Positions 9,868 to 44,500 are shown, counted from the stretch's first letter. The stretch: 64,000 nucleotides of DNA from Actinomycetes bacterium (GCA_046565705.1 JBKHYE010000123.1:1075-65074), one strand, 5' to 3'. Numbers and translations: made by a program. Notes: a model not told the origin generated them from the letters alone.

Positions 9868-11079
9868 TCACGCAGCACCTCCTCGGGACAGGGCACCGGC
9901 GCGCTCGCGCCACAGCCACGACAGGACGATCTCGGCGGTGCGCTCGGGCACCTCGATCTGCGGCACGTGGCCGACGCCCTCGAGGACCTCGAGCTGCCAG
10001 TCCGGCCGCTGCTCGAGCAGCGCCTGCGAGCACGACAGCGGCACGAGCCGGTCGAGCTCGCCGTGCACGATGAGCGCCCGCTGCCGAACGGCGACGACGG
10101 TCTCGCGGTAGGCGTTGCCGCGCGCCAGCAGCGCGACGAGGGACCGGGCCGCCTCGAGGAACGCCGCCTCGGCGTCGGGGCCGGCGGCGCGCGAGGCCAC
10201 CAGCTCGACGGCGACCTGCCGCATCTCCTCCGAGACACGGCTGATGTCGGCCGTCGTCAGCCGCATCTGCTCGCGCACGACGCCCTCGGCGCCGAGCCGC
10301 TCGAGCCGCCGCGCGAGCACGCGCTGCGCGACGCCGGGCACGGCGAACACGGCCGCCTGGCGGGCCACGGCGAGGTCGGGCAGCTCGGTGCGTACGCGCG
10401 GAGCAGCCGGGCCGATGAGCACCAGGTCGGCCACCCGCTGCGGCGCCTCGGCCGCCTCGAGCAGGGCGATCGTGCCGCCCATGGAGTTGCCGAGCAGCAC
10501 CGCCGGCTCGCCCACGACCTCCTCGAGGAAGCGGTCGAGCAGCTCACGGTTCGCCAGCACGGAGGCCGAGCGGCCGGCGCGCGGCGTGCGGCCGTGTCCG
10601 GCGAGGTCGAGCGCGAGGACGCGGTGCCGGGCCGCGAGCAGCGGACCGAGGTCGTGCCAGTTGGCGTGCGAGCCACCCAGCCCGTGCACGCACACCACCG
10701 GTGGGCCGACGGCGTCGCCGGTGGGCTCGTGCTCGACGTAGTGGACCGGGCCGTCGAGGTCGACGGTGCGCGAGCCCTCGACCGGCTCGCCGAGCGCCGG
10801 CGTCAGCGCGATCTCGGACAGCGAGCCGCCGGCGAGGCCGTCGACGTCGACCGGGGCGTCGTCGGTGCCGCGGCGCCACCGGGCCAGCCGCTCGACCGCG
10901 ACGCGCTCGCGGAGCAGCTCGAGCGAGGCGGCATCGCGCAGCGCGGCAGGGCGGAGCGCGGCAGGGCGCAGGGCGGTGGCTCGGTCCCGCAGGGCGGCCC
11001 CCTGCCGGGGGACGGCGGCGGTGAGCTGCCCGGTCCGGTGCTGGACCGCGCGGCGGGTACGGGCTGGCAGCGTGCTCAC
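9868..11079 (-). CDS. Alpha/beta hydrolase
   Basis: VVCVHGLGGSHANWHDLGPLLAARHRVLALDLAGHGRTP and the nucleophile elbow LLGNSMGG. GTG 11079 is preceded by AGAGGA at a 5-nt spacing. The track start 11190 is the alternative. Confidence 0.8.
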   Translation of the reverse strand: MSTLPARTRRAVQHRTGQLTAAVPRQGAALRDRATALRPAALRPAALRDAASLELLRERVAVERLARWRRGTDDAPVDVDGLAGGSLSEIALTPALGEPVEGSRTVDLDGPVHYVEHEPTGDAVGPPVVCVHGLGGSHANWHDLGPLLAARHRVLALDLAGHGRTPRAGRSASVLANRELLDRFLEEVVGEPAVLLGNSMGGTIALLEAAEAPQRVADLVLIGPAAPRVRTELPDLAVARQAAVFAVPGVAQRVLARRLERLGAEGVVREQMRLTTADISRVSEEMRQVAVELVASRAAGPDAEAAFLEAARSLVALLARGNAYRETVVAVRQRALIVHGELDRLVPLSCSQALLEQRPDWQLEVLEGVGHVPQIEVPERTAEIVLSWLWRERAGALSRGGAA

Positions 11080-11266
11080 GCGGGTCCTCTCAGGGCGTCG
11101 GGACAGGGGCGCACCCGGACGACCCGGGCAGGACGAGAGTGTGCGCGCTGAGAGACGACTCAATCCCTCAGCCGACGGGAGTGACGTCACACCGACGACG
11201 CTTCGTCATGGACCACGCGTGCGCGGACACGTGGCAGGCATGCAGCGGCCCGCGCGCGGGCCGCCG

Positions 11267-11360
11267 TGGCGGAGGCTCGGGGATTTGAACCCCGGATGGG
11301 CTTGAAGGCCCAAACCGCATTAGCAGTGCGGCGCCATAGACCGGACTAGGCGAAGCCTCC
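11267..11360 (-). tRNA. tRNA-Ser (anticodon GCT), CCA encoded
   Basis: Acceptor GGAGGCT/AGCCTCC, anticodon stem CCGCA/TGCGG with loop CTGCTAA, long variable arm (GGGC/GCCC), T arm CGGGG-TTCAAAT-CCCCG. Confidence 0.9.
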
Positions 11361-11540
11361 CGAGGGCCTCGCGGCCCACGGCCGAGCAGCGTACCGGGTC
11401 CGGTGGCACGGCGGCAGGGCCAGCGAGGGCGGGCGCCGGGCACGAGACGCCCGTGCTCCGGTCGGGTGACGCGAGCAGACCGTGGCCCGACGGACATGGA
11501 CGGGGGGTCCTGAGGTACCTACGGTGTCCACCATGAGGGG

Positions 11541-12773
11541 GTGACCGTGGCCGACGTCGCGGAGGGCACGTCCTGGCCGGGTGCGAGCCCACCAGGCGTC
11601 GAGCTGCCGCGCACCCGACAGGTCCGGCTGGTCGTCCCGGACGTCCTGCTCACCGACGTGCTCGCGGTGCTCGCCGGCGCCGGCACGACCGCCGACGCCG
11701 CCGGCGCTGCGCTCCCGCTGCTGGCCGGCCGTCCCGGGGTGCGGGCGGTCGCGGTCGTCGCCCGCAGCGAGCGCTCCGCCGTCGTGCTCGGCTCGGCCGG
11801 TTACGACTGCTCCTCCATGGCGCCGGGCGCGCAGCTTCCGCTCGACGCCGGGCTCCCCGTCACCGAGGCGGTCCGCACCGGGCGCACAGTCGTGCAGGGC
11901 GGCGGTCCCAGCTGGGTGGCGATCCCCTTCGGCCGCGGGGCGCAGGAGCCCGGCGCGCTGCTGCTCAGCCTGACGGCCGCGCCCCCGGAGCACACCGCAG
12001 ACCTGGCCCGGCTGCACCGGCTGGCCCGCGCGATCGGCGACGCCCTGCACCGCACGGGCCAGGCCGAGCAGGCGACCGCGTCGCTGGCGGCGGTGAGCGC
12101 TGCGCTTCAGCCGCCGGCCGCCCGCTGCACGGGGTGCGACGTCGTCATCCGGACGTGCGGCGCCCGGGACGGTGTCAGCGGCGACGTCGTGACGTGCCTG
12201 TCCGACGGCCGTGGCGGCACGTGGCTGCTCGCCGCGGACGTCGTCGGGTCCGGGCTGGTCGCCGCGCTGCTCGCCCGGAGCGTGCGGGCGGCCGCCCGTG
12301 CGGTCGCGACGTCGGCCCCTGGACCGGCAGCGCTCCTGCGTGCGGTCGAGCAGGGCATCGCCGACGACGTGCCGCCGGGCCTGTTCGTGACGGCCACCGC
12401 CGTGCACCTGCCGGCGGACGGCCCGGGCCGCGCCGCGAGTGCCGGGCATCCGGTGCCGCTCGTGCTGGCGGCCGGCCGGGCCACGGCGGTCGGCCTCGAG
12501 GCGGGGGCGCCGCTCGCGCTGGAAGCCGTCTCGGTCAGCCGGCACCCCGAGGCGCCGGTCGACCTGCCCGACGGTGGAGTTGTCCTGCTGCACACCGACG
12601 GACTGGTCGAGCGCCGGGCGGGCCGCAGCGTGCGGCAGCTCGACCCGGTGCAGCTCGCGTCGGCCCTGCCCGCGGACCTCGAGACCGCCGCCGACCGGCT
12701 GCTCGCAGCGGCCGACGCCGTCGGACCGGCCGAGGACGACGTCTCGCTGCTGCTGGCGCGCCGCCGCCCGTGA
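11541..12773 (+). CDS. GAF-domain plus PP2C/SpoIIE-family serine phosphatase
   Basis: C-terminal half: ...VSGDVVTCLSDGRGGTWLLAADVVGSGLVAALLARSV...GLFVTATAVHL...GHPVPLVL...GGVVLLHTDGLVE...DDVSLLLARR. The N-terminal half is GAF-like. Confidence 0.75.
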   Translation: MTVADVAEGTSWPGASPPGVELPRTRQVRLVVPDVLLTDVLAVLAGAGTTADAAGAALPLLAGRPGVRAVAVVARSERSAVVLGSAGYDCSSMAPGAQLPLDAGLPVTEAVRTGRTVVQGGGPSWVAIPFGRGAQEPGALLLSLTAAPPEHTADLARLHRLARAIGDALHRTGQAEQATASLAAVSAALQPPAARCTGCDVVIRTCGARDGVSGDVVTCLSDGRGGTWLLAADVVGSGLVAALLARSVRAAARAVATSAPGPAALLRAVEQGIADDVPPGLFVTATAVHLPADGPGRAASAGHPVPLVLAAGRATAVGLEAGAPLALEAVSVSRHPEAPVDLPDGGVVLLHTDGLVERRAGRSVRQLDPVQLASALPADLETAADRLLAAADAVGPAEDDVSLLLARRRP

Positions 12774-20525: not shown

Positions 20526-20936
20526 GTGCGGCTCGTCCTCGACTCCGGCGCCGCCCTGCGAGCCGCCGCGTCCTCAGCGGCGCGGGCGCAACTCGGCGGG
20601 CATGAGCTGATCGCGCCGCCGCTGCTTTGGTCGGAGGTGCACTCGGCCGTGCACGAGGCGGTCTGGCGGCGGGAGCTCGATGCACCGGGTGCCGACCGGG
20701 TGCTCGCCGGGTTCTCCGCACTGCACGTGCGGCGGAGGTCGCCGGCGCGGTTGCACGCCGTCGCCTACCGGCTGGCGAGCGACCTCGGCTGGGCGAAGAC
20801 GTACGACGCCGAGTTCCTCGCGCTGGCCGAGCTCGACGGCGCCCGCGTGCTCACCACCGACGGGCGGCTGCGCCGAGGTGCCGACCGGACCGGGCTCGTC
20901 CTCGGCCCGGCGGAGCTCACCGACGTCCAGGAGTGA
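20526..20936 (+). CDS. vapC: PIN-domain toxin (VapC family)
   Basis: VRLVLDSGA... and ...YDAEFLALAELDGARVLTTDGRL. It starts 3 nt after the antitoxin stop. Confidence 0.75.
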   Translation: MRLVLDSGAALRAAASSAARAQLGGHELIAPPLLWSEVHSAVHEAVWRRELDAPGADRVLAGFSALHVRRRSPARLHAVAYRLASDLGWAKTYDAEFLALAELDGARVLTTDGRLRRGADRTGLVLGPAELTDVQE

Positions 20937-20949
20937 CCGCGGGGACGAC

Positions 20950-22191
20950 GTGCGCCACAGTGGGCACGTGCCGCTCCAGATCACCGGCCACGACGACGGC
21001 CGGCTCCTCCTCGATTTGCCGTGGTCGACGCCGCTCGAGCACTGGCCGGCCGACTCGCTCGTCGCGCTGCCCCGGGGCGTCTCGCGGCACGTCGTCCGCT
21101 TCGTGCGGGTGCGCAGCCGGGTGTACGCCGTCAAGGAGGTCGGCGAGCACTCCGCGCGCAAGGAGTACCGGCTGCTGCGTGACCTCGAGCGGCTCGACGT
21201 TCCGGCGGTGGAGCCGGTCGCCATCATCACCGGGCGGGAGGCGCCGGACGGCACGCCGCTCGAGCCGGCCCTGGTGACGCGGCACCTGCAGTTCTCCCTG
21301 CCCTACCGGGCGCTGTTCTCCCAGACACTGCGGCCTGAGACCGCCAACCGGCTGCTGGACGCGCTGTCGCTGCTGCTCGCCCGGCTGCACTCCGAGGGGT
21401 TCTTCTGGGGGGACTGCTCACTGTCCAACACGCTGTTCCGCCGCGATGCGGGCGCCTTCGCCGCCTATCTCGTCGACGCCGAGACCTCCGAGCTGCACCC
21501 GTCGCTGTCGGAGGGGCAGCGCGCGTACGACCTGCAGACCGCGCACACCAACATCGTCGGTGAGCTGATGGACCTGCAGGCGGCCGGGCTGCTCGACGAG
21601 TCGGTCGACCCGCTCGAGACCGGCGCCGACATCCGCCGGCGGTACGACGGCCTGTGGTGCGAGCTCACCCGCGAGGAGGTCGTCGGCGAGGGCGAGCAGC
21701 ACCGCATCGCCGCCCGCGTGCGTCGGCTGAACGAGCTGGGCTTCGACGTCGAGGAGCTGCGGCTCGACGCCGCCGACGGGCTCGTGCGCATCGCGCCGAA
21801 GGTCGTCGACGCCGGTCACCACTCCCGCCGGCTGCTGCGCCTGACCGGTCTGGACGCCGAGGAGAACCAGGCCCGCCGACTGCTCAACGACCTGGACGCC
21901 TACCGGCACGGCACCGGCCAGCAGGACGAGGACGAGGAGATCGTCGCGCACGAGTGGCTGGCCGAGGTGTTCCAGCCGGTCGTGCGGGCGGTGCCGCGGG
22001 ACATGCGCGGCAAGCTCGAGCCGGCCGAGGTGTTCCACGAGGTGCTCGAGCACCGCTGGTTCATGTCCGAGCGAGCCGGGCGCGACGTCGGGATCGAGGA
22101 GGCCGTGCGCGACTACGTCCGCACCGTGCTGGTCACCAAACCGGACGAGAAGGCGGTGCTCGGAGCGGCGGCGTTCCTCACCGCCCCGTAG
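20950..22191 (+). CDS. DUF4032 domain protein (Kdo/RIO-like kinase fold family)
   Basis: GTG 20950 (or 20968) within track ORF 20680..22191. Sequence: ...RHVVRFVRVRSRVYAVKEVGEHSARKEYRLLRDLERLDVPAVEPV...FFWGDCSLSNTLFRRDAGAFAAYLVDAETSE... Confidence 0.7.
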   Translation: MRHSGHVPLQITGHDDGRLLLDLPWSTPLEHWPADSLVALPRGVSRHVVRFVRVRSRVYAVKEVGEHSARKEYRLLRDLERLDVPAVEPVAIITGREAPDGTPLEPALVTRHLQFSLPYRALFSQTLRPETANRLLDALSLLLARLHSEGFFWGDCSLSNTLFRRDAGAFAAYLVDAETSELHPSLSEGQRAYDLQTAHTNIVGELMDLQAAGLLDESVDPLETGADIRRRYDGLWCELTREEVVGEGEQHRIAARVRRLNELGFDVEELRLDAADGLVRIAPKVVDAGHHSRRLLRLTGLDAEENQARRLLNDLDAYRHGTGQQDEDEEIVAHEWLAEVFQPVVRAVPRDMRGKLEPAEVFHEVLEHRWFMSERAGRDVGIEEAVRDYVRTVLVTKPDEKAVLGAAAFLTAP

Positions 22192-22260: not shown

Positions 22261-23532
22261 CTACTGGCCGCGGACGACGCCGCAGCCGGGGTTCTCGCCG
22301 ACCTCGGGCGCGGCCTCGGGGCCGACGACGATGCCGGCGGGAGCGCCGGTGCACGTCGTCCCGCGTACCGCGCCGGTGCTGCGGTCGGCGAACAGGAACG
22401 CCGCGCGCAGCACGCCGCGGACGGTGCTCCCCTCCACCTGCGGGGCGGACCGCTCGAGCGCCTGCACCCCGACGTCGCCGCCTTCGACGGTGAGCGTCCG
22501 CACGGCGGGGCGGGCGTCGCCGGCGGCGACGAGGCCGGCCGCGTTGTCGGTCAGCCGGGTGTCGGTGACGGTGCCGTCGCTCGTCGCGAGAAAGCAGATG
22601 CCGCACTGGCCGCTGCGCAGGACGCTGCTGCGCGTGATCTCGGCGCGGTGCTCCCCCGAGAGCACGACCCCGCCGACGCCGTTGTCGACGAGATCGGTGT
22701 CGAGGAGCCGAAGGGTCGTGCGCCGGCTCGGGCCGGTCTGCCCCGCGGCACCCGCGGCCATCAGGACGCCGATGCCACCGGTGCCCTCGGCGTCGCCGCG
22801 GGCCCCGGAGACCCGCGCGGAGGTGATGGACAGCTCCGCCGCCGGCGACGCGCTCACGACGTTGCCGGGCGCGTCGCCGGACCGGCTCAGGGTGAGCGCG
22901 TCGACGGCGACCGGCTCGCCGGTGAGCACCAGCAGGACGCCGTCGGCCGCACTGCTGCGCAGCGTCGTCTCGTCGCGCCCGGCGCCGCGCAGCGTGACGC
23001 CGCTCAGCAGCACCAGCGTCTCGTCGACCACGTGCTCCCCCGCGGCGAGCTCGACGACGCTGCCGCTCGCCGCGGCCGCGACGGCCGCGGCGACGTCGCC
23101 GCCCGGCGGCACCGGGCCGTCAGGCGGGCGACCGCCCTGCAGCTGCAGCAGCACGGCCCGGGCGACGGGGCCGCCGGCACGCAGGCCGCGCAGGCCCTCG
23201 GTGAGGTCGTCGCGGAACTCCTCCGGGTCGCAGCCGATGCTCGCCGCGTGCGCCCGCACGTTGGACAGCGCGGAGGTGAACTCCTGCTCCGCCTGCGCGG
23301 GATCGGCGGCCGGTGAGGGCGTCGCGCCGCCGTCGGGCGACGTCGTGCCGATGCTGTCGAGGTAGCGCTGCGCGGTGTCGAGCAGCGCGTCGACGGCGGC
23401 CGCGCAGTCGTCCTGGACCTGCGCAGCCGGGTCGGGCGGCGGTCCGGGGGTGGCGTCCTCGCTGCAGCCGGTCACGGCGAGCAGGCCGCACAGCACGGCG
23501 GTCGCCGCGCGCCGTCGACCGGTGCCCGTCAC
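22261..23532 (-). CDS. Lipoprotein with right-handed parallel beta-helix repeats
   Basis: MTGTGRRRAATAVLCGLLAVTGCSE contains a lipobox (LAVTGC). Periodic beta-helix-type repeats follow (...VTLRGAGRDETTL..., ...ITSARVSGARGD..., ...LLDTDLVDNGVGGVVLSG..., ...VTDTRLTDNAAGLVAAG...). GTG 23532 lies 19 nt after the giant-gene stop, with AGGA upstream. Confidence 0.75.
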   Translation of the reverse strand: MTGTGRRRAATAVLCGLLAVTGCSEDATPGPPPDPAAQVQDDCAAAVDALLDTAQRYLDSIGTTSPDGGATPSPAADPAQAEQEFTSALSNVRAHAASIGCDPEEFRDDLTEGLRGLRAGGPVARAVLLQLQGGRPPDGPVPPGGDVAAAVAAAASGSVVELAAGEHVVDETLVLLSGVTLRGAGRDETTLRSSAADGVLLVLTGEPVAVDALTLSRSGDAPGNVVSASPAAELSITSARVSGARGDAEGTGGIGVLMAAGAAGQTGPSRRTTLRLLDTDLVDNGVGGVVLSGEHRAEITRSSVLRSGQCGICFLATSDGTVTDTRLTDNAAGLVAAGDARPAVRTLTVEGGDVGVQALERSAPQVEGSTVRGVLRAAFLFADRSTGAVRGTTCTGAPAGIVVGPEAAPEVGENPGCGVVRGQ

Positions 23533-23551: not shown

Positions 23552-26500
23552 TCAGGCGACCCGGGCCGGCAGCATGCGGCGTCGCATGGCGAGCAGGGCG
23601 CCGAGCATCGCGGCCAGCAGAGCCACCCACAGGGCAGCCGGCCACGTCGGCGGCGTGCCGACGGGCCCGAACTCGGCCAGGTCGGCGCCGGCCGGGGCCG
23701 CTTCCGACACGACGGGGACCGCCGGGACGACGACGGAGGCACCAGCAGCACTCGGTGCCGGCTCCCCCACGTCGACCGACGCCGGCCCGCCCCGCAGCGG
23801 AGCGGGCGGCGGCGGGACGACTGGAGGCCTCCGGTCTGCCGCGGCGGCGCCGTGGAGCACCGACAGGTCACGCTCGCCCGGCAGGAGCACCTCGGTCATG
23901 CCGTGGTGGCCGTGCTCGAGTCCGAGGACGTGGCCGATCTCGTGGACGAGCACGCTGAGCAGGTCGACCCGACCGGGGACGACGACGCCGCCCAGGTCGG
24001 TGCTCCAGCCCCAGCCGGCGGCGTCGGGGCTGATCCGGATGGTCGTGCCGTCGACCTCGCCGAGCTCGGCCCGGCCGAGCGGCGCGATCTCGAGCCCGAT
24101 GCCCGCCAGCAGCGCGGGGTCCGCGCCGGCGTGCCGCCACAGCGCCAGCGCGGTGGTCAGGACGTGCCGGGCGTCGGCGAGGCTGACCGGCTCGGCGCCA
24201 GGCCCGGACGACGCGGTGACCTGCTTGCGGTCGTCGTCGAGGATGGTGACCATGCCCTGGTTGCCGACACCGGTGGCGCCCGTGACGTCCTGGACCTCGA
24301 CGACGACCAACTCGTCCGACTCCCTGACCCGGTCGCCGATGACGACGACGCTGACGGACGCCGTGCGCGAGCCGGCGCGGATGACGACGTCGAGGTAGCT
24401 CGGCCAGGCCTGGTAGTCGACACCCGCGGTCGCGTTGGGCTGCGTCGTGCTCTGGACGATCCACAGCCGCACGACCACGTCGGTGGTGGTCGTCGCCGAC
24501 AGGGTCAGCGTGAGGGTGGCCGTGGCCGTGCCGCCGTTGCCCTCCTTGATGCTGACGCTGCTCAGCGTCACCGTCGGCAGTGCCGGCGGAGGTGAGGTCG
24601 AGGTGTCGTCGTCGACGATCGTCAGGGTCTGCGACGACGGCGCGACGACGGCGCACCCGCTGCAGCTGCCGAGGCTGACGACGACCGTCTCGTTCCCCTC
24701 GACGAGCGTGTCGTCGAGCACGCTGACGGTGAAGCTCGCCGAGGTGACGCCGTCGGCCAGGGTGAGCGCGGCCGTGGACCCGCTGAGGGTCAGCCCGGCC
24801 ACGCTGTAGTCGGTGCCCAGGGTCGCGGTGCCGCCGAAGCCGACCACGACGCTGATCGCGCCGGTGCTGTTGGACCCGCGGGTGACCGTGTAGGTGACGG
24901 TCGCGCCGCTGCCCTCGCCGGCCGACGTCGCGCTGCCGGTCAGCGACACGGTGGGCTGGGCGTCGTCGTTGGTGATGGTGACGGTGGCGCTGGACGTGCC
25001 GAGGGTGGCGTTCACCGGGCTGGACAGCGTCACGACGAAGGTTTCGTTCGGCTCGTGCAGCGAGTCGCCGACGACCGTGACCGCGATCGTCTTGCTCGTC
25101 TCACCGGCGGCGAAGCTGAGCGTGCCGCTCGTGGCCAGGTAGTCGACGCCGGCCGTGGCGGTGCCGCCGCCGGTGGCGTACTCCACGCTGACCGTGCTCC
25201 GGTACGCGGCCGAGAGCGACACGGTGACGAGGACGGTCGTGGCGTCGCTGTCGCCCTCGGTGACGCTCGCCGGCGCGACGCTGACGGTCGGCAGGTCGTC
25301 GTCGAGGATCGTGACGCGACCGGTGCCCTTAAGCAGCACGTAGCCCGTGCCGCTGGACAGGTTCACGAAGAAGTGCTCGTCGGCCTCGACGAGGCTGTCG
25401 CTGTAGATCGTGACCGAGAGCTGCTGCATGGTCACGCCGGCGGAGAACGACAGGATGCCGTTGGCGGCCGCGTAGTCGCTGCCCGCCACTGCCGTGCCGT
25501 CCGCGGTCGCCCACGGGATGAAGACCGTCTCGCCGTCGCCGGGCGCCTGGTCGAGCGTCACCGTGACGGTGACGGTCTTGGAGCCGCCGGTGCCCTCGAC
25601 GACGATGACGTCGTCGATGACCGCGTTGGGCACCAGGACCGGGTCGGGGTCGGTCGGCGTGTTGCTGCCGTCGAACTGGGAGTCGTCGGTGCGGATGCGC
25701 AGCGAGGTGAAGGTCGCGGCGGACCCCGCGGCGATGAGCCCGAACCGGCCGTCGGACAGACCCGCGTTGTACCCCCAGCTGACCATGAACAGGCCGTTGA
25801 GCGTGACGCTCGCCGAGGCGCCCTTGATCTGGGCGTCCAGGGTGTACTTCGCGCCAGCGGTGAGGGCCTGCGCCACGACGGCGTCGACGACCCAGCCGCG
25901 CCGCGGGTCGTGGTGGCCGAGCAGGACGCGCTGGCCGGCGACGTCGAGGACGGCGAACTTGAAGTCGTCGGCGCCGTAGACGTCGAAGGCGATCCCCGCC
26001 GCGCCGCTGGTCGCGACCGTCGTGGTCAGCTGCAGCCACGACGTGCTGGCCAGGAAGCGGACGTCGCCGAGCTGCGCAGTGACGACGGCCGGGGCGCCCG
26101 GCGACGGAGTGCCGGTGTAGCCGGAGCTGTCGGAGGTCCAGACCCCCGAGTCGGGGGTGGTCAGAGGGCCGGTCCCTGCCGTCAGGTCGGTGGCGCTGTC
26201 GAGGGTGACCTGCGGCGGCAGGACCTGCACCCGCACGTTGTCGAAGCGGCCGCGGGAGTTGTCCGACCCCATGCCGACCATGCCCTTGTTCAGGGCGTAG
26301 GACAGTCCGTCGATCACCCGGGCCTGGAAGGTGTAGGTGAAGGCCGTCGTGCCGTCGACGGTCAGCGTGGCGGTGGTGCCGTTCACCGAGAGCAGCAGCT
26401 GGTACCAGGTGTCGAACTTGAGGTTCTTCGGCGTCTGCACGATCACGTGCCAGCCGAGCGCGTCGTGGTACCCCATGACGATCTTGTTCGTGGACTGGTC

Positions 26501-29500
26501 GATGCCGGCGAACTTGAAGTCGGTCGGGCTGAAGTAGTCGAAGATGATGTAGGCGTTGGCCTTCCACCCGCCGGTGGGCTTCACGATGGAGGCCGAGACG
26601 GCCACCTCGTAGTAGATCGGCAGGTAGTCGTCGACGTAGAAGACGGCCGAGGCGTCCTGGCCGAGGCTGCCGGCGCTGACCTGCAGAGCGCCGCCGCTGA
26701 CGTGCCAGCTGCCGCTGTCGACGTAGAAGCCCTGGGACGTTCCGTCGTTGAAGTCGGCGCCGCGCAGGACGTCGCGCCGACCACCGGGGACGTTGCCGGG
26801 CTGCGGGTCGCGCGGGCCGCCGGTCTGCTCCTGCCAGAGACCGGAGTCCTTCTGCGTGACGATCCCCGCTTCGCCGTAGGGCTCGCCGTTGCGCGCGGCG
26901 TACTCCGCACCGGACTCCTGCACCAGGGTCTGATCGGCGCCCTGCGCCTTCGACAGCGCGTACAGGAACTCCATGAGGCCCGGCGGCACCTGCCGGCTGA
27001 CCGTCGCGATGCCGAACGGCGCGAACGGCACCAGGTAGCTGTTGAACTCGCCGACCCAGTCGATGAGCCGGTCGCCGCCGGTGTTGCCGATGAGGACGTC
27101 GAGCCCGGCGCCGCCGACGGCACGGTCCTCGTACGTGCTGTGCGTCTCCGGCTGGTCGTTCAGGTTGTCGTTCGTGGTCAGCACGTCGTCGGCGTTGAGC
27201 AGGTCGTTGCCCCAGCCGCCCCACAGGGTGTCGCGCCCGGTGCCGCCGACCAGCCAGTCGTCGCCGTAGTCGCCGAACAGGACGTCGTCGCCGTCGGACC
27301 AGAACGTCGTCCCGCCGACGGTGCCGACGTTGAGGCCCTCGTCGTGCGCGAAGTTGAGGAACCAGGGTGCACAGCCCTCGGCCTCCGCACCGGCGCCGGT
27401 CGGCGTGCAGCCCGTGTTCGCCTTGTTGGCGGCCCCGTTCGCGTTCAGCGTGATCATCCGAAGCGGGTCGTACTCGTCGTAGAGCGCGAACTGGCCGGTG
27501 TGGACGACGTCGCGGCCGAGCAGGTTGTAGCCGGCCAGCGGGCGGTGGAAGTCGTTGCGGACCAGCGTCCAGCCGGTCCAGTCGACGGCGTACGACAGCG
27601 GCAGGGCCTCGGCGCCGGACATCGCGTCGTCACCGGAGCCGCCGTGCATGAAGTCGTCGCCCCAGCCGCCGAACAGGACGTCGTCGGCGTAGAGCGGGCG
27701 ATACAGCGGGTCGTCGATGCCGCTGCCGACCTTGGGGTTGAGCGCGAACGGCGTGAGGTCGACGGTCTTGTTGAGCTTGTCGGTCGGGTAGATGACGGCG
27801 ACCTGGATCTTGCCTGGCGTGGTGATCTCGGCCTGCACGTTGGCGGAGGTGAGGCCGTTCAGCGGCTCGGTCTTGCCGTTGCGGCTGGTGAGGATCCGCC
27901 CGTCGTCGCCGAGGACGCCGTCGGCGCCGGTGCCGCCGGAGATCCAGTCGCGGCCCCAGCCGCCGATCAGGTCGTCGTCGCCGGCGTCGCCGAAGATCAC
28001 GTCGTTGCCGCCGCCGCCGTAGACGGTGTCGTCGCCGGTCTCACCGTGGAGCTCGTCGGCGCCCCAGATGCTGGCGCCGTAGGCGCCGTGGCCGTCGTAG
28101 GTCGTCGGGATGTCGGTCGGCACGGTCCAGACGCCGTTCACCTGGGTGCCGCCGAACAGGTCGGGCCGCCGGTCCGGTCCGCCGGCCACGTGGTCGAGGA
28201 GCATGACCGCGCGGACGATCAGCTTGAGACCTGTGCCGTAGCCGTCGTAGGTGAAGCGCAGGAAGGTGCCCACACCCTCGGTGGGCGTCGGGGCCACCAG
28301 GCGGAAGACGTCACCGTTGTCGCCGACGATGGTGTCGGCGTCGCGGGCGTGCGCGTCGGTGCCGGCTGTCTCCGTCGGCAGTCGCTCGTCGTTGCGGTCT
28401 GTCTTGGTGCCGGCGCCGCCGAAGATGAGGTCGTCGCCGCCCGGACGGCGCTGCGGGGTGGTGAGCGAGAACAGGCTCGAGCTGCCGCCGACGATGTCGT
28501 CCTGGCCGAGGCCGCCGAAGATGACGTCGTTACCGCCGCCGCCCTCGATGTAGTCGTCGCCGTCGGTCGTGGCCTCGAACGAGGCGACCACGCAGAGGTC
28601 GCCGGCAGCGTTGCGAGCCGCGCCGACCCGCTGATCTGCCGGGGCGTCGATCAGGTCGCAGGTGCTGCGGTCGCGGTGGTCGATCGAGCCGTCGCCCTGG
28701 ATCGTGTCGTCCCCGAGCTGGCCGAACAGGACGTCGTCGCCCGCGCCACCGGCGAGGTGGTCGTCGCCGTAGAACCACCCGGGCGTGTCGAACTCGTGGT
28801 GCAGCAGGGTGATCCGGTAGTCCGCCCAGGTCGGCTGGTTGCCGTTCCACGCCGGGTTCTCGAAGCGCTCGCTGTCGTCGGTGCCGTAGTCGATGAGCGC
28901 CTCGCCGGCGGTCGCCTGGGCGGTGCTGTAGATCTGCGAGCCGGTGAGCATCCGGAACCGCGGGTTGCGGTAGTCGCCCTCGGTCACGGTGCGGGCGAGG
29001 AAGACGTTGTCGCCGAAGACAAGGTCGCGCCCGACCTGACCGTCCACCGCGTCGTCGCCGCTGCCGCCGACGAGGACGTCGTCGCCGGCGCCGCCGCGGA
29101 TGGTGTCGTGGCCGCCGAGCCAGGTGTCGACGGTCAGCAGGACGTTGAGGACGTCCCACGTGCCGAGGTCGCCGGGTCCGCCGTTGCCCATGAGCAGGGT
29201 GACGTCGAGGTACACGACCGGGTCGGTGAGCGGGTCGCCCGTGATGCCGGTGACGCGGTACGCGCGCCCCCGGTCGCCGAACACCAGGTCGTTCCCGCTG
29301 CCGGTGTTGATCTCGTCGCCGCCCTGGCCGCCGAACACGATGAGCGGCAGCGTCGACGAGCCGGCCTGCACGGTGTCGTCGTCGCTCGTGCCGACCTTCG
29401 GCGGCGCGAAGACCTCGGGGGTCTCGCGAACGATCTCGACGACGAAGTACGGGTCCTCGGCGTCGTAGGTCCGGCGCTTGGTCCCGGCGTAGAAGCTGAT

Positions 29501-35500: not shown

Positions 35501-38500
35501 GCCGATGCCGTCCTCGGGGCTGCTGATGCGGATGGTGTCGTCGCCGGTGCCCGTGCGGACGGTCAGGTGCCCCGCCACGCTGCGGATGATGACGGTGTCG
35601 TTCCCGTTGTTCGTCTCGACGACCGTGGGTCGCTGGGTACCGGCGTGCGTGCTGTCGATCCGCAGCGTGTCGCCGCCGGCGCCGAGCCCGATGAACATCG
35701 AGCTGAAGCCCTCGTAGGTGATGCCGACGGCCATCCCGAGCCCGGTCAGGGTGTTCGAGGTCAGCACGCCGCTGTTGGCAGCGGTGTCGCCGGTGTCGTC
35801 GACCCGGATCACGTCGAACGCTGCCTGCGCGGAGGAGCCCTCGTTGCCGCCCCAGACCTTCAGGGCGCCGGTGACGGCGTTGACGTTGCCGCCGGTGTTC
35901 GCCGAGCCGGTGGACCACAGCGTGTCCGTCCGGCTCTTCGCCATGTTGCTGCCGACGCCGAGCTCGTCGTCACCGTCGCCGAGGTAGATCCGGTGCTCGA
36001 CGTGGATGGCCCGGACGGCGACGCGGTCGCTGCCGGACAGCGTGCGGACCTCGATGAGCTCGACGCCGCTGTAGTCCACAGCCGTGATCGCGCTCGCCAG
36101 CGTGTCGCTCGTGCCGAGCGGCATCTGCCGGATCCGGCCCCGGGTGCTGTCTGTCGTGTCGACGACCAGGTCCTCGCGCAGTGAGGTTCCCCAGACCTGC
36201 AGGCTGTCGGTGCCGGCGCTGTCGGTGACGTGGACGCGCATCCCGGCGGCACCGGTCAGCTCGACCCGCACCGTGTCGTTGCCGTCGAGCGTGGTCAGCG
36301 TGGCGTCACCCGTCCACGGCGTGGCTGCCCGCTTGGTGCCGGCGACCGAGACCGAGCCGTCCGCGTCGCCGACGAGGAACGTGTTCGCGCGGCTGTCGCC
36401 GGTCAGCTGGGCGTTCTCGAAGATGCCCTTGGTGTCCTCGGCGATGCCGGTGGCGAAGTCGACGGCCCCCGACGTCGTCCCGACGACGAACAGGGTTCCG
36501 TAGAGGCCGAAGCTGGTGAAGGTCGGTGACGTCGAGGTGTAGCCGGCCAGGTCCTCGACGAGGGTGTCGCTGCCCCCGGCGTCGAAGAACCGGTCGAGAC
36601 CGCCGCCGCCGGTGAAGGTGTCGTTGCCGTCGGTGTAGTCCGTCTGCCCCTCGGCCGGCTGCAGGACGCCGTCGTGCCCGCCGTCGAGCACGTCGTCGAA
36701 CGGCGTGCCGACCAGGGTGTCGTTGCCCAGCCCGCCGCGCAGGACCACCGCGACCCGGTTCTCGGTCAGGCCGGCTGCGGTGAGCTGGTCGTCGCCGCCG
36801 TTGCCGCGGATCTCGAGCGTGTCACCCTCGGCGCGCACGCTGGTGCCGATCCAGATGTTGTAGGCCTGACCGCTGCCGGTCCGGCGGACCTTGATGTCGC
36901 TCCCGGTCCGCTCGGCGAGGCTGTCCTGGCTGTCGATCGTCCCGGTGAACGTGTCGGCACCGGTGGAGCCGTTGACGAGGATGCGGTCGGCCGCGCCGTC
37001 GTCGCTCGTCACGATGTTCGGCACCTGTCGGGTGATGCCGTCCTCGACCACCGTGCGGGTACCTGTGACGGTCACCCTGCGTCCGAGGTCGATGGTCAGG
37101 TCTGTCACGCTCGACGAGCTGAGGTCGTTGACGACGAACAGGTCGCCACCGGCGCGGCCGTCGAAGAAGAACCGCTCGACGTTGGTGACGGCACGGCTGG
37201 TCGTCGTGTTGCTCAGCGCGGGGACCTTGAGCTGCAGAGTGACGGTGCTGCCGCTTCCGCTGATCGTCAGCTCGTCCGGGAACGAGGACATGGTCACGAA
37301 CAGCCGGTCGGTGCCGTTGCCGGTCCCGTCGCCGCTCTCGGCCACGCCGTCGCCGTTGACCTCCGGGATCGAGCCGGCCTCCGCGCTCACCCGGATGATG
37401 TCGTTGCCGGCGCCGCCCCAGTACTTCGCCCCGCGGCCTTCCAGCTCGTCGTCGCCGTCGCCGCCGTACAGCTCGTCGGTCGCCGACGACCCGACGAGCC
37501 AGTCGTTGCCGCCCTGGCCGTAGAGGTTCGCCGTGCCGGTGCCGTCGTGGAAGATCACGTCGTCGCCGTAGCCGCCCTTCGCGACGACGTTGCCCGGGCC
37601 CTCGATGCTGATGATGTCCTCGTCGCTGCCGGACCCGGTGGTCGGGCCGCCGATGAGGCAGTTGGAGACGAAGTCGGCGCAGGACGCGCTGCCGGTCCAG
37701 GTACCGGCGTAGTTGACGGCGTCGTCGCCGGTGCCCATGTCCAGGTAGACCGGGATCTTGACCGAGCTCATCACGGTGACGCTGTCGTCGCCGCCGGTGA
37801 AGAAGCCGCGGACCGAGGTCACGTTGGTGTAGGTGTTGCTCCGGCCGAACGAGGTGACGCGGATCGTGCCCTTGGTCGCGTCGCCGTCGAGCTGCTCGAT
37901 GACGACGCTCTCGTCGGTGATGTCGGTCGCGATGTTGCGCACGCCGGCCCGGCTGCCGACGTTGAGCTCCAGCGCCCCGCCGGCCGACGTCCACGACCGC
38001 TGGTGCGCCTGTGTGCTGCCGCCGGTCTGTCCGGCGAGGTAGGTCGGCGGCGGCAGCTGCAGGTAGCCGAGGCGGAAGGTCTTCGACTTCGTCACCGTGA
38101 CGAACAGGATCTTGATGCGGACCTTGACGGTGAACTCGATCGCGACCTTGCCGCTGTCGCCGGCGCTCGCGGTGTCGAGCTGGACGGAGAAGTCCAGCCC
38201 GATGCCGACCAGCGTGATGCCGGCGACCTTCACCGACAGGCTCGCACCGACCGCGAGGCGGAACACGTAGGTGTTGTTCGTCGTGACGGTGCACGTCGTC
38301 GGCGGGGTCGGCAGCGGGTTGCCGTCCGCGCACCGGGCACCCGGCGCGTAGTTGACCGACGTCATCCGGAACCGGAACTCGCCGAAGATGCCGAACCCGC
38401 CTCCGCCGAGCGACAGCTGGCCCCGCACGTCGATGTCGAAGTTGCCGCGCGAGTCCAGGAAGATGGAGCCGGACAGCCGCGCGAGCCCGAAGAAGTCCGC

Positions 38501-41500
38501 GCTGATGGCGGCACGGAACGACCAGCCGCCGCTGGAGACCTCGATCCGCAGCGATGCGTCGAAGTTGATCAGCTTGAGGACGTGCGCCTTGCCTCGCACG
38601 TCGAGGACGAACGTCTTGGCCGCGATGCCGATCCGGGTGGCGTTCGTGGTGTTGAGCAGCAGCTGGCCGCTCGCCTCGACACCGAAGACCCGGCCGTCGG
38701 CCTTGACCGAGACGAGGAGCTTCAGCGCGATGCCCTTGTCGTTGGGCTCGTTGACGATGGCCGCGCCGCCCTCGAGGCGGAACTCCAGGCCGACGTCGTC
38801 GGACCCGACGACGAACCGCACGCCGAACTGCATCTCGAACCCAGTCGAGCTGATCCTGATCTCGACGAAGCCGGTGCCGTTGATGAAGCCGATGAAGCGG
38901 ACCGAGCCGTCGATGCGCAGCAGGAAGCCGGGCTGCACCGTGCTGGTGCCGAAGGTCTGCGCCCGGCCCGTGGTGTTGAGCTCCAGTCGCACCGAACCGT
39001 CGAAGCCCAGGCCGACGCCACCGCCGAACCCGGCTGCCAGCTCCACCTGGACGCGAGCCACCAGGCCCTGCCCGTTGATGCGGAACCCGCTGTCGCGGAT
39101 GGTGAGCCGGCCGATCGGGTCGAGCGCCAGCTCGCCGTTCACGATGAGCTCGATGCCGGGGTTGCCGCCGGCCAGCTCGAGCCGGAACAGCACCGACCCC
39201 TGGATGCGCAGCTTCTCCGCGATGACGAGCAGGCCGCCCATCTCGAGCTTGAAGCCGCCGACCACCGAGAGCGTCTGCGTCGTCACGACGAGGTTGCCGG
39301 CCCCGTCCCGCTGGAAGCCGTCGAACACGACCAGGCCGGACGACAGCGTCTTGGTCCGCACGGCGAAGGTCTGGATCGTCTGCTGGGAGGCGAAGGTGTT
39401 CAGCTCCAGCAGGAACTGGCCGTTGAACACCACGCCCGGTATGCCACTGCTGGCGAGCGTGAGCTGCACGCGGCCGACGACGCCCGTACGCGCGCCGACG
39501 TACACGGCGAGGTTGACGACACCTGTCAGCGACCCGAGGAACGCGATGGTGGTGCCGACCGCGCCGTCGACCTTGAAGTAGGCCGTCCCGGTCGGGTCCA
39601 GCGCTGCGGTGATGCCGATGAAGCCGTTGAGGGTGAGCACGCCGCCGATCGACAGCTGCGCCTCGATCGTCGCCTTGACGTAGATCTCGCCGCCGGCCGG
39701 CGCGGACGGGTTCTTGTTGCCGTCGAGCCCCGGGGCTGCCGCGTAGATGACCAGCGTGCGCGGGTCGGTCGGGCGCAGCAGCGGCTCGAACGAGTCGGGC
39801 AGGGTGAACCGCTGCTCCCTCAGGGTGGTGTTGAGCATCAGCGTCACCTTGCCGGTGGCGCTGAACAGGTTGCCGACGCCGGGCAGCCCGATGCCGCCGC
39901 CCATCTCGATGGAGATGAAGCCGGCCACGCCGACGCCCGAGGGTCCGCCACCGGAGATGATCAGCAGGACGGTGCCCTTGCCGTAGGTGATGTAGGAGTC
40001 ACCCAGGCCGAAGCTGACCTCGGCGGTGGCGAATAGGGTGAACTTGGGCGTCGTCGCCGCCTCGATGGCGATGAAGAAGCCGCCCTGCAGGCGCACGAGG
40101 TCGTTCGCCGACCCCGGTGGCCGGATGCGCGCCAGGGCGACCAGCTCGACGCCGAAGCTGCGCGGCCCGAGGACGAAGTCGATCGTCTTGTCGCTGCCAC
40201 CAGGCCCGATGCCCTTGAGGGTGATGCGCTCGAGCTTGGTCTGGTTGGTGGTGTTTATCTGCAACGTGCCCTTCCCGTACAGGAACACGCCGTACGGCTC
40301 GAGCGCCGAGAAGTTGGTCTCGATGGTGGCGACGCCCCAGAACGACGGGATGAAGGAGATCCCGCTCGGGGTCCCGAGGTCGAGCACGAACCGGCCGGCG
40401 GTGGACCCGACCGTGCCGAGCTTGATGATCTTCAGCTGGCCGGAGAACGTCAGCGTGAACAGCTTGCGCGCCGTGTCGATCTCGAGGGTGACGTTGGCCG
40501 ACAGGTCGAGCAGGGGCTCGTCGAGCAGGTCGGCGGCCTGCAGCAGGATGCCGCCGGACAGCTCGATGTAGAACGACGTGCCCTGGGTGACCAGGGCGAA
40601 TGACTGCGTCGACGCGGCGCTGCCGTTGCCGTCGCTGTCGGCCCAGCCGGCGGTGTCGCTTCCGACGGTTCCGGCGAACGCGCGGAAGGAGACCGTCACG
40701 GTGCCTGCCGTCAGCGAGCCGCCGCCGGTGAACATGTACCGGTAGACGCCGTCACCGCGGGCCGCCACGTCGGCGTAGGCCAGCGACGCGCTGCCGGCAC
40801 CCGAGAAGCTCAGCTCGTTTCCGTCGAGGGTGCGCTCGTCGACCGTGCTGCCGCGCACCGGTGTGAGGGCGACGTCCAGCCACGTCCGGCCGGCGAGGGC
40901 GCTGCCCGTGAGCACCGCTCCGGTGCCGCTCTCGGACGACGCCTTGGCCGCTGCCGACGCGAACAGCGCTGCGGTCCAGGCGTCCCCGGAGGTGTTGGCC
41001 CAGCCGCCGTCCACGAACCCGAGGGTCAGGTCGCCGCCGTTGTGACCGGCGAAGTAGTAGCGGTAGGTCCAGCCGGACGCCGTGGCCGAGACCAGTGCCG
41101 GCGCGCCGTCCACCGTCAGCGCGGTCTCGCCCTCCTTGAGGGTGATCTCGGCACCGCCGTCGAGAATGGTGTCGAGGTCGAGATCGACCGGCGTGTTGAC
41201 GTAGACACCTGGTGAGGTCTCGGACCGGCCGAACTGGGTGAAGGTGACGTCGACCCAGCCGCGGCCCTTCACGTCCTTGACGTCGAGCCGGCCGCCGTTG
41301 CTCGGGTCGACGAGGCTGCCGGCCGGCGTCTCGACGTAGAAGATCTCGGTCTCGGCCTGGTTCGGCGTGCCCTCCACGTCGCGGAAGCTGCCGCCGACGA
41401 AGGTGATCGAGTAGGCGCCGCCGGCGAGGGTCGCCGTGAACCCGTAGCGGTAGACGTCGCTGACGCCGACCCGCACCGGGGCGGACAGGGCGACCAGCGC

Positions 41501-44500
41501 TCCGCTCGCGTCGCGCAGCTGCACCTCGTCGCCGTTGATGCTGCCGTGGTCGACCGCTGCGCCGCCGGCGCCGCGGAAACGCACCTCCACGTAGCGCTGG
41601 GCGTTGAGCTTGTCGCGGCCGATCGCGGCACCGGCGAGCCCGGTGAGCTGCGGCTGGCCGCTGGTGTCGAGGACGGTGCGGACCGCGTCCGCGGTCGCGC
41701 CCTCGACGGTGAAGCGCAGGACCTGCTCCAGGTTGTCGAAGGTCAGGCTCGGCGCCGGTGGGTCGCGCGCGCTGGTCTCGCCGACGGCGTTGTCCTGCAG
41801 CGTCACGGTGATCTCGCCGGGCCGCACCTCGTTGTGCAGGAAGAACCGCCAGGTGCTGTTGCCGAGCGGCTGCGGGCCGTTGCCGTTGCCGAGCACCAGC
41901 ACGCCGGCGCCGCCGAACCCGCCGATGGAGATGTCGGTCGCCGAGATGGTGCTCGGGTTGATGGCGTTCCCGGTCGTGGGGGTGAAGGCGATGTCGAGGA
42001 AGGTGCGGTTGTTGCCGAGGTTCGCCGCGGCGGCCGACGCCGACATCGGAGCCAGGTCGAGGTAGCTGAGGGTGCCGGCCTTGAAGGTGACTGTCACGGT
42101 CGTCGCGGAGCTGCCGACGGTGTCGAAGGTGACCGGGACGGCGAACTCGTCGTAGAAGGTCGTCTCGTCCGTGACGGAGTCGGTCACGGACACCACGCCG
42201 ACGTAGGTGATCGGCCGGATCTCGTCCCAGGTCACGACCCAGCCGTTCGTGGCGGTGAACTGCACGCCGGGGCTGGATGTCGCGGTGTTCTGGTCGACGA
42301 ACTGCGCGCGCTGGGTGATCGAGGCGGGGTCGACCCGGCTGCTGCTGGTGCGCTCGAACCGGATCCGCACCTCGCCCGCGGTCGACGTGGTGGGGATCGA
42401 CTCGGAGGCCTTCGCCGTCGTCCCGGACGGCAGGTACGACCACGTCTCGGGCAGGAAGGTGGCGGTGACCGACCCCTCGCTCACCGAGGCGAAGGCGCCC
42501 GTCACGAAGTAGCGGAAGGTGGTTCCGGTCGGGGCCAGCCGGACCGGCGCGCGTGACGGGTCGAGTTGGACGGTGCCGAGCCCCGGCCCGCCCAGGGTGA
42601 GCTCCGCCGCCAGGTCCGTGACCGACGCGACGTCGAGGTCCGCGGCGGTCTTGCCTGCGGCCAGCGGGAGGGTCACGTCCAGCCAGTTGCGGCTGTTGAT
42701 CTCGCGCACGTCGATGCCGCCGAGCGGCACGGGGTCGATCGTCGAGCCGGTGATCCCCACGATCGTGACGTCGACGGAGAAGGCCGCGTTGGTGGCGCCG
42801 GGCGTCGAGCCGGTGCCGGTCCTGAGATCGGCGTTCTTGAACGTGCCGGCGCCGAACGACAGCCGGACGCGGCCGAGGGGCAGCAGCGTCGCGGTGTCCG
42901 CGAAGGCGTACCGGTAGCGCGTGATGCCCTCGCTCTTGATCGCGGCCACCAGCATGTCGACGTCGGTCGGGTTCGTCCCGACGTCCTTGCCGCGGATGAC
43001 GATCACGCGGATGCAGGGGTTCTCCGCTGCCGGCGTCGCGGACCAGGTGCAGTCGGCCTGGGTCCCTGAGGTGGGCCGCTCGTCCCGGTAGGTGTAGAAG
43101 ACGATCTTCTCGCCGTTGTCGGTGCCGACCTGGAGCTTGGCGAAGACGACGCCGCCGGCCACCACGACGGTGACGATGGCGTCGGGTCGGGTCGTGGCGA
43201 GGGCCCGGCTCGTCCCCGTCGCGGTCGGCGTGCGGGCGCCGACGGTGACGGTGAACGGCGCGCTCGTGCGGGTGAGCAGGTGCCGCGCGTCGATGGTCGC
43301 GCCCGTGGCCGGCAGGAACACCACGTCGACGTGCCGGCCGGACAGGTTGGCCGCCGCCGCGTCGACAGTGCCGCCGGCGAAGCCCGGGCCGACGACGGTC
43401 GCGGTCGGCGCCGTGCTCGTGCCGGTGGCGGTCGGGACCGGTGGGGCGTCGGTGGCCAGCGGGTTGCCGCTGGAGTCGCGGAACCCCATCTTCAGCTTGC
43501 CGTAGATGGTCAGCAGCCGGAACTGGTCGGGGATGTCGGCGAGGAACAGGATCGTCACCGCGCCGCTACTCACCTTGGACAGGTCGGCGTAGAGGCGGGC
43601 GCTCATCGACAGGTTGTCGTTGGCGAAGTTGAGCTTGCCGACGATGAGGAACTTCCCGTCGGTGGAGATCTTGATGACGATCTGCCCGTTGAACACCGCC
43701 TGCGACGTGTAGATCGAGTACAGCTTCGCCGAGCCGGTGATGACCATCGGCGAGGTGAACGCCGCGAGGAAGGCCTCCCCTGGGCTCTTGCCGGCGGTGG
43801 CCTTGGCCTGCTTGGCCACCTGCTGCTGCAGCGACGCCAGCCACTGGTCGGCGGAGATGGCGGTCGGCAGGCCGAAGTCGGGACCGCGCAGCGCCATCGG
43901 GTCGTCGATGGACGGCAGCGACTTGAAGAACTCCACGCCGGCGACGAAGTCGTTGATGGTCAGGCCGGTGTTCGGCTCGAGCAGGATGCCGCCCGGCACG
44001 TTGACGTTGATGAGCACCTGCAGCGGGCCGAGCTCGGACAGGCCCACCCGGATGCCGAAGCCGGCCATGCCGGCGATGGTGAACGAGCCCTGGATGCCGA
44101 CGTAGAACACCCGCTGCGCGACCGGCGTCGTCTCGTCGAACACGCCGATGATGTTGTAGCTGCTGTCGAGCTTGAGGATGCCGCCGACCAGGCCGGCCTC
44201 GATCTTGCCGCCGAACAGGTCGCCCTTCACGGTGACGCCGAGGGCGTCGATGCCGATGATCGGGAACTTGCCCTGCGCGAGCAGCGCCGGCGCGATGCGG
44301 ATGCCCTGGACCGAGCCGCTGATCTCCAGCCCCGGGATGCCCTTGATGCCGGTGACGCTCGCGGACAGGATCAGGACGAAGTCACCGGGGTCGCTCTCGA
44401 GGTCGCGCCAGGTGATGCCGATCGCGTCGATCCGCACCGGCAGGAACGACGGCCACTTGAACGAGTCGCCGCTCGCGGCACCGACGGCGATGAACACGCC

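Follow-up and report, generated by a model that had tools for sequence, protein, structure and literature searches.

The C-terminal tail of a giant bacterial surface protein, encoded on the minus strand of a 64,000-nucleotide (nt) stretch of DNA from an Actinomycetes bacterium (GCA_046565705.1 JBKHYE010000123.1:1075-65074; this whole stretch is the window referred to below), contains a minimal metzincin domain, complete at about 105-120 residues, that is encoded by bases 23870-24229 and resembles the catalytic domains of the matrix metalloproteinases (MMPs). An earlier, sequence-only reading of the window had pointed to a short "protease-like module" here, while allowing that it might be a degenerate metal-binding fold. 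We find that the zincin region, far from being a chance motif or a degenerate remnant, is conserved as a complete domain, and that it belongs to a very large family for which there is no dedicated Pfam or NCBIfam model. Our best explanation as a whole, that of a minimal metzincin engaged in limited processing, is one to which we give an even chance of being right.

The giant protein and its C-terminal tail

The open reading frame (ORF) is listed at 23552-63889 on the minus strand (13,445 amino acids, aa) and has the composition of coding sequence, with a GC content of 0.97 at third codon positions (GC3) and 0.54 at second positions (GC2). The reading frame is open through base 64000, including bases 63889-64000 (minus strand). 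The gene is thus cut off by the end of the window, the protein has more than 13,480 aa, and the N-terminus, with any signal sequence, is beyond the stretch. Residue numbers such as H13316 are counted from the first listed codon of the ORF.

Translation of the last 1,215 codons gives two LamG domains, four Calx-beta domains, the HExxHxxGxxH module, a Pro/Ala/Val linker, one transmembrane helix and an RRR tail, in that order, and so every element of the cassette described in the sequence-only reading is present in the minus-strand ORF. Some of its figures needed revision: its linker of about 65 aa measures 75 aa (23645-23869), and the span of 23912-23944 that it gave for the zinc-binding region was 3 nt short. 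The features of the tail are:

26213-26779, minus strand: LamG/concanavalin-like domain 1 (aa 12371-12559), which passes the gathering cutoff of PF13385 (Laminin_G_3; 29.1 bits against 27.6) when scanned alone
25682-26212, minus strand: LamG-like domain 2 (aa 12560-12736), a divergent duplicate of domain 1 (BLASTP E=2e-11, 27% identity over 111 aa)
24230-25624, minus strand: four Calx-beta domains (aa 12756-13220), each with a terminal (D/N)DD motif; PF03160 passes its gathering test over 4 stretches (E=3.3e-54, 182 bits), and the boundaries were read from the sequence
24170-24229, minus strand: conserved N-terminal extension of the module, RKQVTASSGPGAEPVSLADA, from comparison of motifs in homologues
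23870-24169, minus strand: mini-metzincin catalytic core (aa 13241-13340), with helix A, a small beta-sheet with the AAGWGW edge motif, active-site helix B and a Met segment ending LLPGER
23912-23947, minus strand: zinc-binding motif VHEIGHVLGLEH, from the sequence and family conservation; its HEIGHVLGLEH part is 23912-23944
23942-23944, 23930-23932 and 23912-23914, minus strand: presumed zinc ligands H13316, H13320 and H13326, respectively, from the sequence
23939-23941, minus strand: presumed general base E13317, from the sequence
23897-23899, minus strand: Met13331, the presumed Met of the Met-turn, 4 residues past the third His
23645-23869, minus strand: 75-aa Pro/Ala/Val-rich low-complexity linker (A16, P16, V12, G8)
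23585-23644, minus strand: one transmembrane helix near the C-terminus, WPAALWVALLAAMLGALLAM; no other window of the tail is as hydrophobic (Kyte-Doolittle mean 2.13 over 19 aa)
23552-23584, minus strand: basic tail RRRMLPARVA, taken to be cytoplasmic, and the stop codon (23552-23554)

The second LamG-like domain had no match in Pfam or PDB sequence searches, and its assignment to LamG is based solely on its homology to the first.

The zincin region is a conserved domain

In the context of the 1,215-aa fragment, PF00413 (the matrixin family) scored 23.8 bits against a cutoff of 24 over 24 profile positions only, and a sequence search of the PDB returned karilysin and MMPs at E of about 0.01, over the helix only. 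On these two results alone a chance motif would have remained possible. With the module scanned by itself, PF00413 scored 26.9 bits, above its cutoff, although only profile positions 103-126 of 159 were aligned.

Homologue searches with the region itself revealed a family. A search with a 138-aa segment found 8 relatives at 41-58% identity, a profile of these found 293 relatives in a word-indexed database, and an exhaustive search with the same profile returned 9,006 sequences, each representing a cluster at 50% identity, at E<=1e-3, with 6,291 at E<=1e-10. The family hidden Markov model (HMM), run over the giant protein, detected the C-terminal copy (aa 13248-13351, E=3e-40) and no further copies. 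The family profile matched karilysin and MMPs at E=1e-5, and also stromelysin-3 and fragilysin; the karilysin alignment reaches the Met, with the Met13331 column aligned to karilysin's own Met-turn Met. PF00413 matches 66 of 68 family members and, in a relative with longer loops (P0125), aligns over profile positions 18-137 of 159.

Conservation was measured over 259 copies aligned to the family HMM. Across the zinc-binding motif the first His is conserved at 99%, the Glu at 100%, the following Gly at 98%, the second His at 98% and the second Gly at 97%, and the third ligand is His in 86% and Asp in 12% of copies. The downstream Met (97%) lies mostly five to six residues past the third ligand, and 4 in the window copy. 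Beyond the motif, the Trp of helix A (94%), the D-x-D/N-A-A-G-W-G-W segment (W55 100%, G52 and G54 98%), D69 (98%), the DLL that opens the active-site helix (98%), G98 (95%), R100 (89%) and an L..G.R pattern past the Met are all strongly conserved. The window copy, with HEIGHVLGLEH, has the metzincin form HExxHxxGxx(H/D) and every catalytic position intact.

An AlphaFold2 model from a 68-sequence alignment reached a predicted local distance difference test score (pLDDT) of 93.7 and a predicted template-modelling score (pTM) of 0.88. It superseded a run with 9 sequences, in which the pLDDT was 74, the C-terminal part was unresolved and Foldseek matches were weak. The model has a long helix A (residues 7-23), a short helix, five short strands (35-38, 47-50, 53-56, 65-66 and 78-79), an active-site helix (80-91), a Met-bearing coil and a final helix (113-121). 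In a Foldseek search of the PDB its top matches were the catalytic domains of MMP-12, -13, -9, -3 and -8 (probability 0.94-1.0, query-normalised template-modelling score (TMq) 0.50-0.60), followed by selecase, a mini-zincin of 108 aa. Model and matches together thus give the metzincin arrangement of helix A, a sheet of about five strands, helix B and a C-terminal helix. By eye, the AAGWGW segment appears to stand where MMPs have the "LAHAF" edge strand. Only the last six residues of the N-terminal extension are in the model, as coil; the extension probably corresponds to strand beta-I and the loop into helix A.

These results support the protease-like reading, with MMP matches for the model and 86-100% conservation of the His/Glu/Gly/His/Gly/His(Asp)/Met positions, and they disfavour a degenerate metal-binding fold. 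The two outcomes that the sequence-only reading had named as fatal to it, no similarity to zincins and no conservation of the His and Glu residues, were contradicted by the MMP-like model and by the 259 copies. It was also correct that the region is much smaller than a full matrixin domain; at about 105 aa, however, it is conserved as a whole domain rather than being a mere fragment.

The minimal metzincin compared with the named families

Among the named metzincin families that we tested, the module falls short of matrixins proper on several defining points and matches none of the others. Matrixin catalytic domains have 160-170 aa, including an S-loop with structural zinc and calcium, against about 105 aa here, and in the window copy only 13 residues separate GWGW from DLL. 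The module follows directly behind the fourth Calx-beta domain via RKQVTASSGPGAEPVS; neither a PRCG motif of the cysteine switch (PRCGxPD) nor any Cys is present between that domain and the module. The sequence-only reading had asked for a Met-turn and a fifth ligand, and here the answer was divided: there is a Met at the Met-turn position, but the Tyr fifth ligand of astacins and serralysins (SxMxY) is absent from the window copy, in which the residue at Met+2 is Glu (M-T-E-V-L). Glu is also the commonest residue there in the family (46%, with Ala and Asp at 14% each), and Tyr is not among the common ones. Snapalysin, too, is a poor fit, as the third ligand is His and PF02031 matches 2 of the 68 members, at E>=0.0037. 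The NCBI model NF038122 ("metallo_LGF") is matched by 67 of the 68, weakly, at about 26 bits against a cutoff of 80.

Carriers of the module and the actinobacterial cassette

Carriers of the module are secreted repeat proteins of large size, the longest in our sample having 7,426 aa, with Calx-beta, RTX, FG-GAP, cadherin-like, PKD, DUF4347 and RHS domains. They come from phyla that include Actinomycetota, Planctomycetota, Pseudomonadota, Verrucomicrobiota and Nitrospirota; in a scan of GTDB representatives the highest identity was 56-59%, to Mycobacteriales metagenome-assembled genomes. Among the culturable carriers are Humibacillus xanthopallidus SLM-627 (NZ_CP084995.1, around 4.545-4.557 Mb), Jannaschia seohaensis DSM 25227 and Sphingomonas aquatica LMG 28596. 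The last module lies within 250 residues of the C-terminus in 64 of the 83 sampled proteins of at least 400 aa. Modules are also found near N-termini (P0127, P0135), internally, or in tandem (P0121, P0125, P0129, P0136), and P0135 has one at each end, beside hydrophobic segments. In some tandem pairs the first copy has no HExxH (P0129, and also P0142, P0144 and P0176). We had considered that some of the family might be stand-alone mini-proteases; this was rejected, as the context of the many matches of 105-240 aa, some of them on 40-285 kb contigs, shows that they are pieces of giant genes broken by frameshifts in long-read assemblies.

In Actinomycetota the module recurs in many independent sequences within one cassette: a Calx-beta domain ending DDD, a conserved junction, the module, a Pro/Ala-rich linker, a transmembrane helix and an Arg-rich tail (P0148, P0169, P0183, P0189, P0192, P0229, P0156, P0001, P0005 and P0006). 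In the actinobacterial branch the module is fixed in this cassette, which recurs among uncultured Actinomycetota. Its junction follows the motif DDD-[RS][KR]-[LQ][VLM][TA]A..GPGA in P0140, P0147, P0148, P0169 and P0229, and a family-wide "L.A[AST]" signal lies 26-31 residues ahead of the conserved Trp. In the giant protein the junction between Calx-beta domain 4 and the module (DDD-RKQVTASSGPGAEPVS, 24170-24229, minus strand) is kept far better than would be expected of a linker; it might form strand beta-I, confer latency or be the place of cleavage. A larger C-terminal block is seen in P0124 (5,371 aa), with a "GGDRLIDW..." segment, two LamG domains, module, linker and transmembrane helix, and in part in P0135 (7,426 aa), where the same segment and a C-terminal module are followed by a hydrophobic tail.

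Anchoring of the C-terminus

The single hydrophobic helix and its Arg-rich tail, which are also seen in more than 10 homologues, suggest by the positive-inside rule that the giant protein has its N-terminal side outside and its C-terminus inside the cell. The homologues have no conserved signature motif ahead of the helix, and linkers of similar composition occur in P0001, P0148, P0169, P0183, P0189, P0192 and P0229. A regular-expression search of the last 160 aa found no LPXTG, LAXTG or NPXTG motif, as the sequence-only reading had stated, and an NCBIfam scan of the last 1,215 aa (E<=1) placed no known C-terminal sorting model (GlyGly-CTERM, PEP-CTERM, MYXO-CTERM or others) on the tail; matches to the SVAGG and MXAN_2677 models fell only on the Calx-beta and HExxH regions. 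With both searches empty, a sortase or other known sorting signal on the tail was rejected.

At about 23669-23683 (minus strand), 13 residues ahead of the transmembrane helix, is a sequence "LAEFG", which departs from the class E sortase motif LAXTG only in having Phe for Thr and is not kept in the homologues. A different ending is seen in many members, among them P0173, P0188, P0208, P0232 and P0236, where the protein stops 19-35 residues past the module after an amphipathic stretch and a terminal KRR, RRNRR or HKR. These carriers are presumably planctomycete, and the ending looks like an undescribed C-terminal signal.

A proposed role in limited processing

The catalytic competence of the module is well supported by its intact and conserved residues, and we suggest that it is an active peptidase that works without an MMP-type cysteine switch. 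One catalytic zinc is predicted to be bound by H13316, H13320 and H13326, with E13317 as the general base that would activate water and M13331 in the Met-turn. A Glu at this position is dispensable for metal binding, and its 100% conservation therefore favours catalysis over a purely structural role. With the Arg tail in the cytoplasm and the linker of about 75 aa spanning the cell wall like a stalk, the protease would be held away from the membrane surface, at the foot of the exposed fibre. Cleavage there, in the low-complexity linker next to the module or in the conserved junction, could lead to maturation or release of the fibre. Our tentative proposal, in which we have somewhat less than even confidence, is that its role is limited proteolysis of the giant protein that carries it or of copies nearby. 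The minimal size of the module, the lack of a cysteine switch and its constant placement beside linkers at protein ends (at both ends in P0135) are why we favour limited processing over bulk degradation; general protein degradation is the less likely of the two.

The more specific idea put forward from the sequence, that the module could mediate autoprocessing or shedding of the ectodomain, is only partly in line with the comparative data. It is in its favour that module, Pro/Ala linker, transmembrane helix and Arg tail recur together in so many actinobacterial sequences. Against it are relatives that have intact sites and no anchor, and the N-terminal, internal and tandem modules of other proteins. 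P0003, P0011 and P0012 (43-46% identity) have intact active sites and end right past the module in a short basic tail with no helix, and a giant protein of the cultured Humibacillus xanthopallidus is likewise intact and ends, unanchored, past its module. Release from a transmembrane anchor is thus not the general function of the family, and shedding is at most one local use. Other observations weigh against our explanation more broadly: the E-values of the Foldseek matches are modest (best 2.6e-3, with template-modelling scores of about 0.56-0.60); the window subfamily, in a trait common to its closest relatives, has Ser at position 47, where the family has 97% Asp ("RISPDAAGWGW"); and degenerate copies exist (HELAQRLRLD, HEMGAQLGLD and the first copy of P0124), so that some copies must be non-catalytic.

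We have weighed three other explanations against limited processing. The giant protein may instead be a display scaffold for an active protease with external substrates, whether environmental or on the surface of a host, prey or competitor, comparable to the serralysins with their RTX repeats. The conserved catalytic residues suit this possibility, as do the co-occurring RTX, Calx-beta, cadherin-like, PKD and RHS repeats, which are typical of adhesins and toxins, the intact sites in unanchored proteins, and the fact that the nearest characterised relatives (karilysin, MMPs and fragilysin) are secreted exoproteases. However, a module of about 105 aa has neither the MMP S-loop nor most of the C-terminal subdomain that shapes specificity pockets, no cysteine-switch motif or other latency device was identified, and a site close to the wall, at the opposite end from the distal tip of a fibre that exceeds 13,000 aa, would have poor reach; the constant adjacency to low-complexity linkers at protein termini also speaks against it. 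We therefore regard this explanation as possible but doubtful.

A non-catalytic role is unlikely in our judgement. The module would then be a zinc-stabilised structural or binding domain, a pseudo-protease that caps or stabilises the fibre end or docks to a component of the envelope, for which its very small size, the loss of the motif in the degenerate copies, the Ser at position 47 and the presence of modules beside hydrophobic anchors at both ends of P0135 could be cited; but those degenerate copies are a small minority, the ones that we looked at adjoin an intact copy, the window copy has every catalytic residue, and the conservation of the general-base Glu is accompanied by 97% conservation of both the Gly of HExxHxxG and the Met. 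To a chance HExxHxxGxxH in the linker of a high-GC ORF, with no domain at all, we give virtually no credence. The sub-threshold PF00413 score in the 1,215-aa context, over only 24 profile positions, speaks for it, but thousands of homologues align over about 100 residues, the fold model is of high confidence with MMPs as its top matches, and the GC3 of the ORF is that of coding sequence; on the homologue counts, the model, the Foldseek matches and the conservation across copies this explanation was rejected.

One further form of limited processing can be imagined, which we consider very unlikely as a specific proposal. The module might be the smallest functional metzincin scaffold (about 85-105 aa), built into giant-fibre termini as a single-turnover "release latch", with a flanking segment (the K-L-V-T-A..GPG junction or the linker) held in or near the cleft and cut in cis upon a change in calcium, force or ligand, so that the fibre is detached or matured. 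Were this so, it would be a bacterial counterpart of the autoproteolytic SEA and GAIN domains of eukaryotic mucins and adhesion receptors.

The rest of the giant gene and its neighbours

Upstream of the tail, FG-GAP repeats are found at 50390-63889 (minus strand), followed by 4,500 consecutive residues (36890-50389, minus strand) with no Pfam match at E<=1e-3 and, downstream of these, by RTX repeats at about 27960-28070. No DNA tandem repeats were detected in the giant gene at a score of at least 200. Between the RTX repeats and LamG domain 1, at 26924-27091 (minus strand), there is a segment "GGDRLIDWVGEFNSYLVPFAPFG..TVSR...P.L.EFLYALSKAQGAD" that has no Pfam model and is also kept in P0124 and P0135.

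A gene of 423 aa (22261-23532, minus strand) begins 20 nt past the stop codon of the giant gene; its product combines a lipoprotein-like signal (LLAVTGC) with a beta-helix of the right-handed type (PF13229, E=2e-8). As a homologue of this gene trails the homologous giant gene in L002 (about 10500-11670), it may be a conserved partner. The neighbours on the plus strand encode a beta-propeller protein (PF09826; 15254-17515), a DUF4032 plus Kdo-kinase-like protein (20680-22191) and a SpoIIE-type phosphatase protein (11541-12773). Over about 23 kb downstream, no gene for a sortase, a protease or a secretion system was seen.

Significance and comparison with known systems

The kind of enzyme is already known, and annotation pipelines label some members of the family as metalloproteases (one is named "matrixin family metalloprotease" at NCBI); the novelty lies in how far the scaffold has been reduced, in how large the family is and in the conservation of the terminal cassette. 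In the literature on giant Calx-beta/metzincin proteins, mini-zincins, LEPR-XLL and bacterial MMPs we found no account of the module. If it is active, it would be among the smallest metzincin catalytic domains described, in a family of thousands without a dedicated model. Its fixed placement at protein ends, beside linkers and anchors, would then suggest a general bacterial route for the maturation or release of fibres several thousand residues long, and mutation of the Glu to Ala, or zinc chelation, would give a handle on the display of giant proteins. Should it be only a displayed exoprotease, the MMP-like domain would be an ordinary one and only its host protein unusual.

The best matches of the module, in sequence profile and in structure, are the matrixins (M10A, PF00413), such as karilysin of Tannerella forsythia and human MMP-12 and -13, with which it shares HExxHxxGxxH followed by a Met, and a helix A with a conserved Trp. 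It differs from them in being a short-loop subtype of about 105 aa without the structural zinc and calcium ligands of the S-loop; in having a Gly after the third His in place of Ser or Thr; in a Met 4-6 residues past that His, against 7 in "HSxxxxALMYP"; and in having no PRCGxPD and no hemopexin domain. It is also built into the terminus of a protein that exceeds 13,000 aa. Its "D..AAG.GWF" also appears, on alignment by eye, to take the place of the calcium loop and edge strand "DG..G.LAHAF" of MMPs. The closest curated NCBI model, NF038122, covers the edge strand and HExxH, but with about 50 of its 274 positions aligned the module is not a member.

Snapalysin of Streptomyces (MEROPS M7), at about 132 aa, is, as far as is known, the smallest metzincin described and has Asp as its third ligand. 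Like the module it is a very small actinobacterial metzincin, and the same Asp is found in the 12% of family copies noted above, but snapalysin is a free secreted enzyme with HExxHxxGxxD, whereas the window copy has His. The archaeal minigluzincins (selecase, projannalysin and proabylysin; about 105-110 aa) are of comparable size, have the same minimal zincin scaffold and form the second group of Foldseek matches (template-modelling scores 0.39-0.57). Within the zincins they are placed with the gluzincins and are not known to have the metzincin Met-turn, and unlike the module they lack the HExxHxxGxxH and Met signature and are stand-alone proteins.

In function, membrane-type MMPs (MT-MMPs) and ADAMs are membrane-anchored metzincin sheddases of type-I topology, with a stalk, a transmembrane helix and a basic tail, whose substrate is another protein. 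In MARTX and polymorphic toxins, an embedded releasing peptidase processes its own giant protein. The likeness of the actinobacterial cassette to these sheddases and toxin peptidases is one of functional analogy only.

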